25,326 nt of DNA, taken from the IMG/VR virus record IMGVR_UViG_2565956724_000002; one strand, 5' to 3'. The stretch is from a virus. Lineage: Duplodnaviria; Heunggongvirae; Uroviricota; Caudoviricetes. Positions 1 through 25,326 of this stretch are shown one piece after another; positions within the stretch are counted from its first letter, which is position 1; every line of letters starts with the position of its first letter. A model generated the notes under the pieces. It did no database searches. It saw nothing but the letters and a program-made list of their open reading frames with translations, and was not told the origin of the DNA. The position numbers and the translations under genes were made by a program.

Positions 1-578
1 AGGCTGTGGGTCAGGCCACTCTTGGCATCGACACCAATGTGGGCCTTCATGCCAAAGTGCCACTGATTGCCTTTCTTGGTCTGATGCATCTCCGGATCGC
101 GTTGCTGCTCTTTGTTCTTGGTAGAGCTGGGTGCCTCAATGATGGTGGCATCCACCAAAGTGCCCTGGGTCATCATGACGCCTGCTTCGGCCAGCCAGCG
201 ATTGATGGTCTTGAACAATTGACGGGCCAGTTGATGCTGCTCGAGCAGGTGGCGGAAATTCATGATGGTGGTGCGATCCGGCAGGGCGCTATCCAGGGAT
301 AATCGGGCAAACAGGCGCATAGAGGCGATTTCGTACAGGGCATCTTCCATGGCACCGTCGCTCAGGTTGTACCAATGCTGCATGCAGTGAATACGCAGCA
401 TGGTCTCCAGCGGATAGGGCCGTCGGCCATTGCCCGCCTTGGGATAAAACGGCTCGATGACAGCGGTCATATTCTGCCATGGCAGAATCTGCTCCATGCG
501 GGAGAGGAAAATCTCTTTTCGGGTCTGACGGCGCTTAGTGCTGAATTCACTATCGGCGAAGGTGAGTTGATGGCTCAT
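1..578 (-). CDS. insH: IS5 transposase InsH, N-terminal part (C-terminus lies beyond the window)
   Basis: The ATG is the reverse complement of 576-578. The ~190 aa I translated by hand are near-identical to InsH as I recall it. Confidence 0.9.
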
Positions 579-646
579 GATGTCCCTCTGGGATGCGCTC
601 CGGATGAATATGATGATCTCATATCAGGAACTTGTTCGCACCTTCC
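1..646 (-). mobile_element. IS5, partial (runs off the window start); the end inside the window is at 646
   Basis: The minus-strand translation from 578 reads [37 protein letters not shown]..., which I recognise as the IS5 InsH N-terminus. The terminal inverted repeat GGAAGGTGCGAACAAGTTCC is the reverse complement of 627-646, followed by CTAA at 647-650, the usual IS5 target. Confidence 0.9.
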
Positions 647-1149
647 CTAATGTAGTCGGCGCTTGCAACGTTGTTATATTCCGTTGCGAAGCAGCATAAC
701 AACGTCAGAACGTGCTCTGTCGTTATTTCGCTCCAGTTGATGTTGAAAAATTCATCGCCTTTTTTGTCATGTTCGGAATCGAAGATGCTTTGGTGAAGGA
801 TGTATTTGCCGGATTCCTTGCGCGGTAACTTGATCGCTTTCTGGCGTTCCAATTCCTTGTAAATCTGCATTGCTTCAATCAGTACCGGTCTGCCGTTCAT
901 GAAGGGATCACGCAACCTTACACGCTGGCCAACTCGACCGGTAATAAAGCTGTTTTCCTCTTCCACCAGCACGATAAAACCCTTTTCCTCTTTTTCTCGC
1001 AATTCGCGCAGCAGCTGGAGTTCCATATCGCGGCGGCGTTCAGGGTAGCTGGTCCGCTCAGCCATTATCAGCTCATTGTTGATCCATGCAGCAGTCATTG
1101 ACGCCGGTTTGCCGACGCTCATTGAAACAACGCATATTTTCTTATCCAT
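619..1149 (-). CDS. Hypothetical protein downstream of ref (possibly mat-like), with its 3' end replaced by IS5 sequence
   Basis: Minus-strand ORF; the likely start is ATG at 1149 ([10 protein letters not shown]...). The last ~9 codons and the stop (619-646) are encoded inside the IS5 terminus, so the native C-terminus is lost. Confidence 0.45.
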
Positions 1150-1159
1150 AGCGCCCCTA

Positions 1160-1187
1160 CAAAAAAGAAAAGCCACCAGCGGCGGCT
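1160..1187 (-). terminator. Putative intrinsic terminator downstream of ref
   Basis: On the minus strand a GCCGCC-GCU-GGUGGC hairpin is followed by a T-run (plus-strand A-run 1161-1170). Confidence 0.4.
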
Positions 1188-1337
1188 TAGCAATACAACT
1201 GAAGGTAGCGCCCGGTACTCAGACTGTGCCGTCCATGGAATATTTGAAAAGGGATCCATCCGTACCGGGCGTGTGATGATTCTGACTCAAGTCACTTGTC
1301 AGTTGTCAATCATTTAAGATTAAAAATAATATATTTA

Positions 1338-1898
1338 TTAGTGCATGATGTTTGCCATTTCATAGGCGTCAGCCAGCAACTCCATCTCTGACTTGTTCAA
1401 CAAGGTGAATTCTTTCTTGCCTCCTACCACGCCATCGGCATGAACAGGGACCAGCCAGGGGTATTTTTCTCTTACTTCAGCCGGTGCTGCATGCTGGTGG
1501 TGCCATCTGCAAAGGGGCAATTGCTTTTTGTGACAACCCGGCGCGGTACGACCGGAGATATGGTGCAGAGACACCTCTTCAGATATTACTCCATGCATGT
1601 AGCAGGCAATGCAGGGGAGAGTGCCAAGAGCATTGGCGATGGTCCGTTCCTCCGCCGTCGGTGTTCGCCCCTTCAAGCCACGAGATTTTATTTTTACCGC
1701 ACTTTTCCGCGTTTTGCTGGCTGGTGGGCGCTCTTTCTGTTTAGCGATACGGCGGTCGATAGAATCCCGCATTTTCTGATATTGCGATTCTCGCCAGGCG
1801 GGGTCAGCCAACTTTTCCCGTTGCCGAGCGATCGCTCGTTCTCTGGCTGCCTTCTGCCACTCGCGGCGCTGTTCAAGTTTTTGTTCGATTGTTTTCAT
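1338..1898 (-). CDS. ref: Ref, recombination enhancement function (HNH-type endonuclease), 186 aa
   Basis: From the internal Met, MKTIEQKLEQRREWQKAARERAIARQREKLADP... matches P1 Ref as I recall it. The HNH-like motif CRWHHQH is visible. The ORF track's N-terminal extension back to 1976 runs through a hairpin and is probably not translated. Confidence 0.88.
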   Translation of the reverse strand: MKTIEQKLEQRREWQKAARERAIARQREKLADPAWRESQYQKMRDSIDRRIAKQKERPPASKTRKSAVKIKSRGLKGRTPTAEERTIANALGTLPCIACYMHGVISEEVSLHHISGRTAPGCHKKQLPLCRWHHQHAAPAEVREKYPWLVPVHADGVVGGKKEFTLLNKSEMELLADAYEMANIMH

Positions 1899-1903
1899 AT
1901 GGC

Positions 1904-1929
1904 AAAAAAAAGGCGGCCTAATGGCCGCC
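1904..1929 (-). terminator. Hairpin plus T8 immediately 5' of the ref start codon (terminator or attenuator-like)
   Basis: Perfect stem GGCGGCC / GGCCGCC (1912-1918, 1923-1929) with loop TAAT. On the minus strand it is followed by eight T (plus-strand A8 at 1904-1911). Confidence 0.5.
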
Positions 1930-23496: not shown

Positions 23497-23698
23497 CCAG
23501 CTTCACTTCGTCAATACGGTTCTCACTGCACGCTTACAATTGTATCCAGAATTAATCCGGTCAATTCTTCTGCAAGCAGTTTTGCTGTGTTAGCACTGTT
23601 TCGTGCCGATGTTATGGCACCAGGTGTTTTCATCCCACCGGCGGCGGCCAATTTTTTATATGCGGATAACTGGTAGTCTTTTTCCAGCATGATATCTC

Positions 23699-23983
23699 CT
23701 AACTTACCTGAACCAGGCCGTCTCCGGACGCTACGGTAGATCCGCATGAAACAGGGTCACCAACGCATACGATCCCTTTACCATTGACGGTAAACCATGC
23801 CCTGGTTGATATAGCTTGCCCACCGTGCGTACTGTTTCCATCGGTATGCTGTGCATATTGCTTACCATCAACTAACACTTCGACTCCGTTGACTTTAAGT
23901 AGTGGTTCACTCTCTACAGGAGGCCTGGATGGGAATCCTCCGTGCCCCGAAAAAATGCTGTCTTTTGTTGCAATACTTGCCAC
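23699..23983 (-). CDS. Small protein with PAAR-like motifs (upfC-like by position)
   Basis: ...KVNGVEVLVDGKQYAQHTDGNSTHGGQAIS...VNGKGIVCVGDPVSCGSTVASG resembles repeated PAAR-type motifs. It sits immediately upstream of the IS66-disrupted gene on the same strand. Confidence 0.35.
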   Translation of the reverse strand: MASIATKDSIFSGHGGFPSRPPVESEPLLKVNGVEVLVDGKQYAQHTDGNSTHGGQAISTRAWFTVNGKGIVCVGDPVSCGSTVASGDGLVQVS

Positions 23984-24063
23984 GTCATCACCAATTATTT
24001 GCTCTGGTTTTCGTTATTTTAACTTAGGTTACTTGTGGTCTACATGGCGTCAACTATTGCATA

Positions 24064-24080
24064 ATTGCTCTAATAAATAT
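24064..24080 (+). promoter_or_regulatory. C1 operator-like site upstream of the uhr/hrdC-like genes
   Basis: ATTGCTCTAATAAATAT matches the consensus at 16 of 17. Confidence 0.6.
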
Positions 24081-24151
24081 TGTTTTTTATGTCTTGTTTT
24101 CGGTACCATTCAGCCATCGCCCTTCAATGGGTATTTGTTTGGAGTCGTCAG

Positions 24152-24436
24152 ATGCAGATGGAGCTAATAAGCCGCAAAGAGTTCGATAGCCGTGTAACCA
24201 GCGGTGAACTCGACAACTTGCAGGCTATCAAGGTGAAAGAAGGCTTTTGCCTCATTGGGAATCAGAGCGGAACAAATCGCGTTTTTATGCTTCGCCGTAC
24301 GGATTTGAAGCCATTTGTCTGGAAGAACGAAATTGGTCCCAGCTCATACGCTCAAACTAGGGGGTGCCACAACCTGGCCTTTTTCTACAAAAACGAGCTT
24401 TCTGTGGTTGATATTCAAGGGTTACAACATGTTTAA
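24152..24436 (+). CDS. Hypothetical protein upstream of the rdgC homolog (uhr-like)
   Basis: The start is taken at [11 protein letters not shown], with GGAG 7 nt upstream. No function recognised. Confidence 0.4.
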
Positions 24437-24979
24437 GCACTGGAAAAACATTACTATTTATAAACTTTCTCGTGAGGCGGATCTGACCGACTTAGAAGAT
24501 AAAAAGAAAATGATCCTTTTCACGCCATGCGGTAGTCAGGATATGGCCAAGTTCGGTTTTGTATCTCCATTTGGTGATAATTCCGAAGTTATCGCTATGC
24601 ATGGAAATGGTTTTATTCTTGTTGAAGCAAAGCGCGAAACAAAAATTCTTCCCCCGCCGGTTATCCAGCGAGCTATTCAAGAAAAAATTGAAAAACTTGA
24701 GCAAGAACAAGCGCGTAAACTGAAGAAAACAGAGAAGGACTCCCTGAAAGACGAAGTTCTGCATTCTCTTCTGCCACGGGCTTTTTCAAAGTTTTCTGTT
24801 ATCCAGGCGATCTACGACGGTTCAACTAAACGTATCTATATCAATGCCAGCGCGCGGCAGGCAGAGGATATGCTCGCGCTTATGCGTAAATCTCTGGGTT
24901 CTCTTCCTGTTGTTCCCCTAAGTGTTGAAAATCCCATTGAATTAACGCTGACCGACTGGGTACGTGATGGTAGTGCTCC
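24429..24979 (+). pseudogene. RdgC-like recombination-associated protein (hrdC-like), C-terminally truncated by IS911
   Basis: [19 protein letters not shown]...[19 protein letters not shown]...[32 protein letters not shown]... closely resembles the N-terminal ~180 aa of E. coli RdgC. The ORF ends inside the IS911 terminus. Confidence 0.7.
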
Positions 24980-25326
24980 TGAAGTGGTTTACTGAATTTG
25001 GCCACCTGAACAGAGGTGATATGCTCACCTCAGAACAACACAGGTGCCATAATGAAAAAAAGAAATTTCAGCGCAGAGTTTAAACGCGAATCCGCTCAAC
25101 TGGTCGTTGACCAGAATTACACCGTGGCAGATGCAGCCAGCGCTATGGATGTCGGCCTTTCCACAATGACGCGATGGGTGAAACAATTACGTGATGAGCG
25201 GCAGGGAAAAACACCAAAAGCCTCCCCCATTACCCCGGAACAAATTGAAATCCGTGAGCTCAGGAAAAAGCTACAACGTATTGAAATGGAAAATGAAATA
25301 TTAAAAAAGGCTACTGTAGATTCAAT
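24980..25326 (+). mobile_element. IS911 (IS3 family), left end, partial (runs off the window end)
   Basis: Terminus TGAAGTGGTTTACTGAATTTGGCCACCTGAACAGAGGTGATATGCTCACC, followed by an OrfA coding sequence. Confidence 0.85.
25052..25326 (+). CDS. IS911 OrfA (partial)
   Basis: Hand-translated from 25052: [88 protein letters not shown]... Confidence 0.85.

Follow-up and report, generated by a model that had tools for sequence, protein, structure and literature searches.

The stretch of DNA analysed here, 25,326 nucleotides of the IMG/VR virus record IMGVR_UViG_2565956724_000002 and called the window in the following, carries replication, partition, addiction and immunity genes of a bacteriophage P1-like element next to broken packaging and capsid genes and five insertion sequence (IS) elements. 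We consider it very likely that it represents the inheritance core of a plasmid that derives from a P1/P7-family phage-plasmid and has lost the phage half of the life cycle. The window corresponds to positions 1-25326 of scaffold KI538793.1 (109,782 bp; GCA_000495075.1) and is 100% identical to it over the stretches compared: window positions 410-20724 align at 100% identity and without gaps, and scaffold segment 14429-34995 starts with window 14429-25326. Within this scaffold, which was built from short reads and contains gaps, it is the contig that comes first, beginning within one IS and ending within another; scaffold positions 25327-26691 are N, while the window itself contains none. The scaffold sequence covered extends from position 1 to 34,995, including three N gaps. 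At a coverage of at least 80%, the window found no match among the INPHARED phages, PLSDB and the RefSeq complete E. coli genomes.

The backbone was compared by blastn and tblastn with P1 (NC_005856), with AF503408 as the reference for P7. More than 25 P1 genes were recognised by tblastn, and the assignment to the P1 family made in a preliminary description of this DNA from its letters and open reading frames is borne out, with Cre, Cra, Ref, C1, Coi, Phd, Doc, PdcB and RepA being 94.6-100% identical to their P1 counterparts at the amino acid (aa) level. The P1 gene order is kept within each of two arms. The left arm (mat' to hsdM', a prime denoting a truncated gene or product) is reversed with respect to P1, the right arm (gene 23' to hrdC') runs forward, and an IS1 joins them. 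A scan of the window for tRNA genes found none; those of P1 sit outside the retained segments.

Packaging and late functions

Six features describe the state of the packaging and late genes:

10410-10724, minus strand: truncated lpa, encoding Lpa aa 1-78 of 150 followed by 26 out-of-frame codons
10096-10494, minus strand: pacA remnant, aa 265-397 only (tblastn)
10491-10494: lpa-pacA deletion junction, reading GATGACAGTAC followed directly by GAACGAAAG, with a 3-bp microhomology (TAC) and no IS
7273-8372, minus strand: 3' fragment of pacB (large terminase subunit), about aa 128-494
9705-10093, minus strand: 5' fragment of pacB, aa 1-130 (tblastn)
14232-15424, minus strand: gene 23 (major capsid protein), aa 1-398 of 568, 99.5% identical, with the C-terminal 170 aa lost

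The most disabling lesion is the deletion between lpa and pacA, which is absent from the preliminary description. P1 positions 90224-91320 have no counterpart in the window by blastn, and by comparison with a closer allele in NZ_CP145673.1 (locus positions 15685-16784) 1100 bp are deleted between flanks that are 99.4% and 97.3% identical. Lost in this deletion of ~1.1 kb are codons 79-150 of lpa and 1-264 of pacA, together with the pac cleavage site and the late promoter LPpac; the Pfam BPP1_LPA match of the truncated Lpa is limited to profile positions 1-64 of 131. According to the annotation of the P1 record Lpa activates all P1 late promoters, and its loss would therefore leave the head, tail and lysis operons silent even if they were present. 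The loss of pac should in turn block specific packaging even with a helper phage. When a second cluster of at least four pac-like hexamers was sought across the window, only one was found, starting at 3865 in the Dam-site region upstream of cre.

The pacB gene is split by IS2 at about aa 128, its 3' fragment showing 88% aa identity to residues 114-494 of P1 PacB. The element had been described as probably packaging-defective on account of its IS elements, and the defect proves larger than claimed because the lpa-pacA deletion adds the loss of the pac site, of two thirds of pacA and of the C-terminal half of Lpa. IS insertions are thus only part of the packaging defect, the lpa-pacA deletion having occurred without an IS.

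Replication, partition and addiction modules

The functions for plasmid maintenance are located as follows:

17963-19405, minus strand: IncY-type replicon, made up of the next three features
17963-18247, minus strand: incA with nine iterons, mapped to P1
18247-19107, minus strand: repA, RepA 100% aa identical to P1
19164-19267, minus strand: five iterons of incC/oriR, which also has five GATC sites and DnaA boxes
15680-16645, minus strand: parB, intact, 321 of 321 aa identical to P7 (100%)
16642-17853, minus strand: parA, intact, 403 of 403 aa identical to P7 (100%)
15547-15642, minus strand: parS of the P7 type, from alignment to the annotated P7 parS
12448-12669, minus strand: phd, intact, 100% aa identity to P1
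12068-12448, minus strand: doc, intact, 99.2% aa identity to P1
10813-11856, minus strand: pdcB, intact, 96.8% aa identity to P1, with a Pfam DUF968 match
within 10813-12669, minus strand: pdcA, intact, 96.9% identity to P1
19425-20417, minus strand: upfA, mlp and ppfA, all intact, 96-99% aa identity to P1
23699-23983, minus strand: upfC, a P1 homologue
24152-24436, plus strand: uhr, a P1 homologue

All 14 iterons could be mapped, the mismatches numbering 0-4 per iteron, and the DnaA boxes match those of P1 exactly. Together with RepA and with ParA and ParB this upholds the earlier view that the replication and partition module is intact. A P1-type partition system was rejected, as the identity of ParA and ParB to the P1 proteins is only 58% and 43%, respectively, as against 100% for P7. 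Within parS, boxes B1, B2, A1, A2 and A3, which have P7 specificity, are conserved; box A4 differs at two positions, further changes with respect to P7 are found in the spacer and the IHF region, and an exact match to P7 parS was sought in the window and not found. By these comparisons the maintenance region is a P1/P7 mosaic, combining RepA of P1 with ParAB of P7, and IncY by virtue of its RepA.

Cre/loxP, immunity and lysogeny genes

The window also retains a recombination system and the immunity genes of a temperate phage:

1341-1898, minus strand: ref (RecA-dependent nuclease), full length, 186 of 186 aa, 94.6% identical to P1
2149-2457, minus strand: c8, full length, 103 of 103 aa, 93.2% identical to P1
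2508-3539, minus strand: cre, intact, 343 of 343 aa aligned, 99.1% identical to P1
3547-3768, minus strand: cra, intact, 98.6% identical to P1
3958-3991, minus strand: loxP, an exact 34-bp match to ATAACTTCGTATAGCATACATTATACGAAGTTAT
4035-4051, 4118-4134 and 4582-4598: C1 operator-like sites of immC (sequence matches)
4180-5544, plus strand: immC region with imcA, imcB, coi and c1
4373-4582, plus strand: coi, 97.1% aa identity to P1
4693-5544, plus strand: c1 repressor gene, 99.3% aa identity to P1, with substitutions A34T and C193G
5577-7269, minus strand: an extra, complete immI-type operon (c4-icd-ant) between c1 and pacB
7253-7269, minus strand: C1 operator-like site of the ant operon (sequence match)
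7100-7178, minus strand: isrK-like leader (Rfam RF01394, 60.2 bits)
6968-7055, minus strand: C4 antisense RNA (Rfam RF01695, 75.4 bits)
6692-6913, minus strand: icd, 80% aa identity to P1
5577-6695, minus strand: ant, 372 aa, 56% aa identity to P1, Pfam ORF6N and ANT

Cre differs from the P1 enzyme by three substitutions (A249S, A252P and D343N), and the catalytic residues R173, H289, R292, W315 and Y324 are all present. The lysogeny and immunity circuit, that is C1, Coi and the c4-icd-ant operon with its putative C1 operator, is complete.

The match to isrK, an Hfq-binding small RNA, lies directly upstream of the C4 RNA match, both of them within the icd-ant leader and downstream of the operator-like site at 7253-7269. 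The isrK model may just respond to the leader that c4-type immunity operons have in common, namely the region of the target site.

IS elements and other interrupted genes

The five IS elements amount to 5531 bp or 21.8% of the window:

1-648, minus strand: right-hand 648 bp of an ISKpn26-like element (IS5 family), cut by the scaffold start
about 8373-9704, plus strand: IS2, 1331 bp, in pacB, with a 5-bp target duplication
13464-14231, plus strand: IS1, 768 bp, 98.7% identical to the IS1 of P1 (NCBIfam IS1, 144.8 bits)
21101-23537, plus strand: IS66-family element, 2437 bp, with ends GTAAGCG...CGCTTAC and the 8-bp target duplication AATTGTAT
21184-21567, 21564-21911 and 21961-23496, plus strand: tnpA, tnpB and tnpC of the IS66-family element
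24980-25326, plus strand: left end (347 bp) of an IS3-family, IS911-like element with orfA from 25052 (NCBIfam IS3-family match), followed by the N run

The number of elements and their families had been given correctly in the preliminary description. The element called IS5 is, however, ISKpn26: IS5 proper was rejected for positions 1-648 because the identity is 91.8% to the IS5 of P1 and 99.7% to copies annotated as ISKpn26 (NZ_CP010179.1). The N-terminal 192 aa of its transposase are encoded at 3-578 (NCBIfam NF033581, 234.7 bits for a cutoff of 140), and its end reads ...CACCTTCC, followed by CTAA. The IS2 transposase gives 713 bits with the NCBIfam TnpB model (cutoff 597). Depending on the placement of the ends, the IS2 target duplication is ACCAG or CCAGT, corresponding to P1 positions 92106-92110 duplicated at the flanks. 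The IS66-family element is recognised by an NCBIfam transposase model (467.5 bits) and by Pfam TnpB_IS66 and DDE_Tnp_IS66. Its target duplication and that of IS2 indicate simple insertions. The partial element at 24980-25326 is presumably IS911, a name suggested by comparison of its translation with the IS911 OrfA sequence. The G+C content of the IS66-family element is about 0.60, against about 0.47-0.50 for the backbone, and a 99.6% identical copy is present elsewhere on E. coli H15 plasmid A (61693-64130).

Outside the packaging genes four further genes are incomplete:

619-1260, minus strand: mat remnant with a 1-bp frameshift near codon 34, cut at about aa 210 of 250 by ISKpn26
20460-21100 and 23538-23747 (whole 20457-23747), minus strand: upfB fragments, about aa 67-281 and aa 1-71, respectively (tblastn)
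24429-24979, plus strand: hrdC/rdgC remnant, aa 1-185 of 301, ending at the IS911-like element
12852-13463, plus strand: 5' remnant of hsdM (type I methylase), about 210 of 518 codons, ending at IS1

The interruptions of pacB, hsdM, the capsid gene, upfB and the rdgC homologue that had been read from the sequence were all recovered by tblastn. The truncation of mat at ISKpn26 is missing from the preliminary description; the frameshift of this gene is seen as two high-scoring tblastn segments in different frames, and the alignment shows the indel. The IS66-family element splits upfB at about aa 70. The truncated HsdM matches NCBIfam TIGR00497 over profile positions 1-215 of 515, and Pfam HsdM_N together with the start of N6_Mtase.

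The IS1 junction between hsdM and gene 23

Length, ends and transposase of the element joining the two arms fit IS1 (768 bp, insA/insB, GGTGATG.../...CATTACC). The 8-9-bp target duplication typical of IS1 is missing, the flanks ...ACGTCTCC and CGAATGATG... being unrelated, which is expected if this copy mediated a rearrangement and not a simple insertion. A simple IS1-adjacent deletion was rejected: after such an event IS1 would adjoin the 3' part of hsdM, whereas in the window it adjoins the 5' part, with phd coming next. In two complete relatives (see below) the map runs from gene 23' across IS1 via lydA and round the circle to mat, ref, cre and on to phd, and hsdM is then entered from its 5' end. 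From this comparison hsdM'-IS1-23' appears to be an inversion junction, as only an inversion fits the gene orientation. IS1 gives rise to such junctions either when it transposes within a molecule in inverse orientation or when two inverted copies recombine. An IS1-bounded inversion would have cut hsdM and set the phd-to-mat arm beside gene 23', and it predicts a reciprocal 'hsdM-IS1-lydA junction. The order further downstream on the scaffold (hrdC', mobH, mobI, trhR and IS1 copies) is that of relative NZ_LT883139.1, which fits the inversion model.

Complete relatives and the remainder of the replicon

The two complete relatives are E. coli H15 plasmid A (NZ_CP010179.1, 116,417 bp, circular) and E. 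coli plasmid I (NZ_LT883139.1, 118,720 bp). The junction between 23' and IS1 is common to both, at 99.84% identity for NZ_CP010179.1 (window 13462-21100) and 99.96% for NZ_LT883139.1 (13464-21100), and so is the junction between hrdC' and IS911. NZ_LT883139.1 is moreover 99.86% identical to window 1-4258 and 100% identical to scaffold 24217-34830, including mobH and mobI. The relatives cover 26,984 bp (NZ_CP010179.1) and 27,749 bp (NZ_LT883139.1) of P1, and neither contains portal, pro, lyz, sheath, tube, baseplate, tail-fibre, immI, kilA/repL or ban genes. In both, and in other contigs, the IS1 beside 23' is followed by lydA-lydB-hdf-darA', an order that implies deletion of P1 about 31.3-57.6 kb. 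The source plasmid of the window would likewise be devoid of virion genes; the basis is the two relatives, the scaffold having been covered to 34,995 of 109,782 bp.

Just outside the window, at about 27.3-30.2 kb of the scaffold, are genes for MobI and for a 573-aa relaxase of the MobH type (Pfam TraI_2). The region downstream of the hrdC'-IS911 junction is an IncA/C-type mobilisation remnant (MobH, MobI and trhR) bounded by ISKpn26 and IS1 copies. In the relatives, IS911 is itself interrupted by IS30. The cargo of the H15 plasmid comprises tetrathionate reductase (ttr), lactate utilisation, an ars operon, a clpK heat-resistance locus and encapsulin with a DyP peroxidase, and that of NZ_LT883139.1 lacIZY, dgo and a Slam/TonB-dependent receptor set.

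The pac region has a history of its own. The pacB and pacA remnants (7273-10494) are about 82-84% identical to P1 and about 83% to NZ_LT883139.1 at the nucleotide level, whereas the flanking c1 and lpa-phd sequences are 96-98% identical to P1. The remnant is 97-98% identical to SJ46-/RCS47-type phage-plasmids and to H15. This divergence from the flanks indicates that the c1-to-lpa segment has been swapped among P1-like elements, inside a clade that was already without virion genes.

Distribution of the truncated genes

The age of the lesions was gauged by searching for the exact truncated products across an index of public assemblies, the counts being index blocks or contigs:

HrdC', 188 aa: 2325 index blocks
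Lpa' fusion, exact 104 aa: 796 index blocks
PacB fragment at IS2, 375 aa called: 547 index blocks
gp23' at IS1, 404 aa called: 505 index blocks
Mat' at ISKpn26, 176 aa: 492 index blocks
UpfB' at the IS66-family element, 178 aa: 3 contigs
HsdM' at IS1: KI538793.1 only (1 contig)

The contigs shown with truncated products are mainly from E. coli assemblies, including human gut metagenome contigs. By these counts five lesions are old and common to a successful lineage, and two, the IS66-family insertion and the hsdM-IS1 junction, are recent. Assembly artefacts, which the preliminary description had named as a threat to its reading, are excluded for the IS2, IS66-family, IS1-gene 23, IS911 and ISKpn26 junctions because each of these recurs in independent assemblies; that of hsdM' with IS1 was seen in KI538793.1 only. 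The idea of a P1 prophage-plasmid being converted into a plain plasmid is supported, except that the conversion is not under way: it is largely finished and inherited, with the truncated products of five lesions in roughly 500-2300 index blocks.

The junction between hrdC' and IS911, the most widespread lesion, is also found in plasmids with P1-type ParAB, a different Rep of 277/294 aa and an intact gene 23. The same defective P1-derived segments are present in the very long scaffolds KE136820.1 (2.37 Mb, with two hsdM-phd-doc copies) and KE701469.1 (644 kb), which represent either chromosomal plasmid integration or over-scaffolded drafts.

Discussion

An element whose phage cycle is broken at so many points has kept the complete toolkit of a unit-copy plasmid: copy control by RepA, oriR and incA, the P7-type ParAB/parS system, post-segregational killing by Phd/Doc and resolution of dimers by Cre/loxP. 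In the model that we favour, the junction of IS1 with gene 23 was inherited, and an ancestral IS1-associated deletion would have taken tail fibres, baseplate, tube, sheath, immI and repL/oriL (P1 about 31.3-57.6 kb). Judging from the relatives, the clade would also have lost the portal, head-processing and lysozyme genes and the remaining tail genes, and gained MobH and MobI as well as metabolic and stress cargo. The insertion of the IS66-family element in upfB and the IS1-bounded inversion cutting hsdM would be events specific to this strain. The predicted gene content suggests that the element is now inherited vertically and, instead of travelling as a virus, is probably mobilised.

Several points weigh against the reading as a plasmid that has lost its phage functions. 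Only 35 kb of the 109.8-kb scaffold were covered, and that no intact copies of lpa, pacA, pacB, gene 23 or the tail genes lie elsewhere is inferred from two relatives. In one of these, NZ_LT883139.1, lpa, pacA and pacB are intact and belong to a different allele, so the region has been exchanged by recombination within the clade and the lesions could in principle be repaired in the same way. The linkage hsdM'-IS1-23' is seen in one short-read scaffold and passes through a 768-bp repeat, IS1, of which the scaffold has at least three copies. Finally, the evidence is purely sequence-based.

The last but one of these points bears on the inversion. Had the assembly crossed from hsdM' to gene 23' by way of another IS1 copy, hsdM on the actual plasmid would carry a simple insertion of IS1, and gene 23' would still be joined to lydA via IS1 as in the ancestor. 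The occurrence of the hsdM'-IS1 product in KI538793.1 only, the gaps in a short-read scaffold with at least three copies of IS1, and the small distance between these copies (3-10 single-nucleotide polymorphisms) would all be compatible with such a mis-join. The polymorphisms themselves are uninformative on a chimeric join, as the window's copy is set apart from two H15 copies by an identical set of three. On the other hand, the contig passes through IS1 without a gap, the downstream order hrdC'-mobH-mobI-trhR-IS1 fits the inversion and all other junctions recur in independent assemblies; we therefore regard a mis-join as improbable. Whichever is true, an IS1 end truncates hsdM and the gene is lost.

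It is very improbable that the element is still a working P1-like phage-plasmid which draws the missing functions from intact copies on the replicon or from a second P1-like element, even though about 75 kb of the scaffold lie beyond the part covered, the genes lpa, pacA and pacB are intact in relative NZ_LT883139.1, and E. coli commonly harbours P1-like elements. With its own pac site deleted, a helper could not package it specifically. The junction of 23' with IS1 marks an ancestor without about 26 kb of tail and lytic-replication genes, and both complete relatives with this junction have no virion genes. A co-resident element with IncY replication and P7-type par would also be incompatible, given the P1 incA, incC and incB determinants. 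The retention of intact C1, Coi, c4-icd-ant, Ref and Cre/lox together with C1 operators might instead be thought to point to a helper-dependent, satellite-like parasite of P1 phages that exploits an incoming P1 for packaging. This is hardly credible for an element devoid of a pac site, whose C1 immunity would block an incoming P1 rather than exploit it, and whose clade gained a relaxase, pointing to conjugative mobilisation (PMC10879196).

The same retained genes could be viewed in another way on the side of the plasmid reading. Rather than being a dead end, the clade may have been selected as an immunity plasmid in which the virion genes were lost while C1, Coi, c4-icd-ant, Ref, Cre/lox and Phd/Doc stayed intact, a suggestion that we find rather unlikely. 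If true, the host could benefit, for example through C1-mediated exclusion of incoming P1-like phages. Alternatively, the retained functions might simply be locked in, C1 being needed to silence the toxic icd and ant.

Taken as a former phage-plasmid, the element offers a clear and well-dated case of decay into a mobilisable plasmid. It illustrates that the decisive lesions can be small and independent of IS elements, as in the 1.1-kb microhomology deletion of pac, pacA and lpa, and that an ex-phage element can persist and spread widely after the viral route has been lost. It also calls for caution in annotation: Cre, C1, Ref and fragments of terminase and capsid genes mimic a P1 prophage, though the contig cannot be one. 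Beyond such bookkeeping the significance is modest, since the phenomenon is ordinary and already published.

Relation to known systems

p15B of E. coli 15T- is the classical precedent, a defective P1-related plasmid that yields no plaque-forming phage. It still carries tail-fibre and lysis genes, unlike the relatives of the present clade. Homology to p15B is noted in the P1 record. More recently, Pfeifer and Rocha 2024 (PMC10879196) described how P1-like phage-plasmids shed phage genes, acquired mob or oriT and in this way turned into plasmids ('P-Ps became plasmids'). Most of these P1-derived plasmids are without lysis, tail or regulatory genes and are phylogenetically derived, and most have a relaxase or oriT (PMC10879196). 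Dataset S7 of PMC10879196 lists NZ_CP010179 as a P1-derived plasmid with a wGRR of 0.341. The element studied here has the same marks as their P1-derived plasmids: many P1 homologues, a broken phage cycle and an acquired relaxase of predicted function. Of the attributes of a functional Punavirus, the replicon, the partition, addiction and Cre-lox functions and C1 immunity are present, while pac/PacA/PacB, Lpa and a complete gene 23 are not. A full-text literature search for KI538793 returned nothing. The kind of element is thus already known and common, part of a lineage-wide conversion as in Pfeifer and Rocha 2024, and the KI538793.1 plasmid itself is undescribed.

The likeness to P1 and P7 extends over RepA, ParAB, parS, Cre/loxP, C1, Coi, ImcA/B, Ref, C8, Phd/Doc, PdcA/B, UpfA, Mlp, PpfA, UpfC and Uhr. 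In contrast to P1 and P7, the window has the extra c4-icd-ant operon beside c1 and a diverged pacB (about 83% nucleotide identity to P1), a type I hsd replaces the res/mod context of P1, and IS elements make up 22% of the sequence compared with about 2% in P1 (IS5 and IS1 copies, from feature coordinates). Functional phage-plasmids of the SJ46, RCS47 and vB_EcoM-673R5 type are 97-98% identical at the nucleotide level over the left arm from mat to phd, a stretch that takes in the ant operon and the diverged pacB. They were deposited as phages and have pacA/pacB or terminase annotated, whereas the window has the deletion and IS2. The 24.5-kb record OQ595196.1 ('Salmonella phage SJ1') matches the window in 16 pieces, with merA, hsdM, parA and terminase A annotated; it looks like a fragmentary or rearranged segment of a P1-like plasmid and not a complete phage genome.

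Closest to the window are its two complete relatives. H15 (NZ_CP010179.1) has, like the window, the ant operon, an IS2 within pacB and the deletion between lpa and pacA, but its ISKpn26 lies near lox and not in mat. NZ_LT883139.1, on the other hand, shares the junction of mat' with ISKpn26, while its lpa, pacA and pacB are intact and of the P1 type and no ant operon is found beside c1. Both have RepA, P7-type ParAB and MobH/MobI downstream of hrdC' as here, and to this common arrangement the window adds the IS66-family element in upfB and the putative IS1 inversion.

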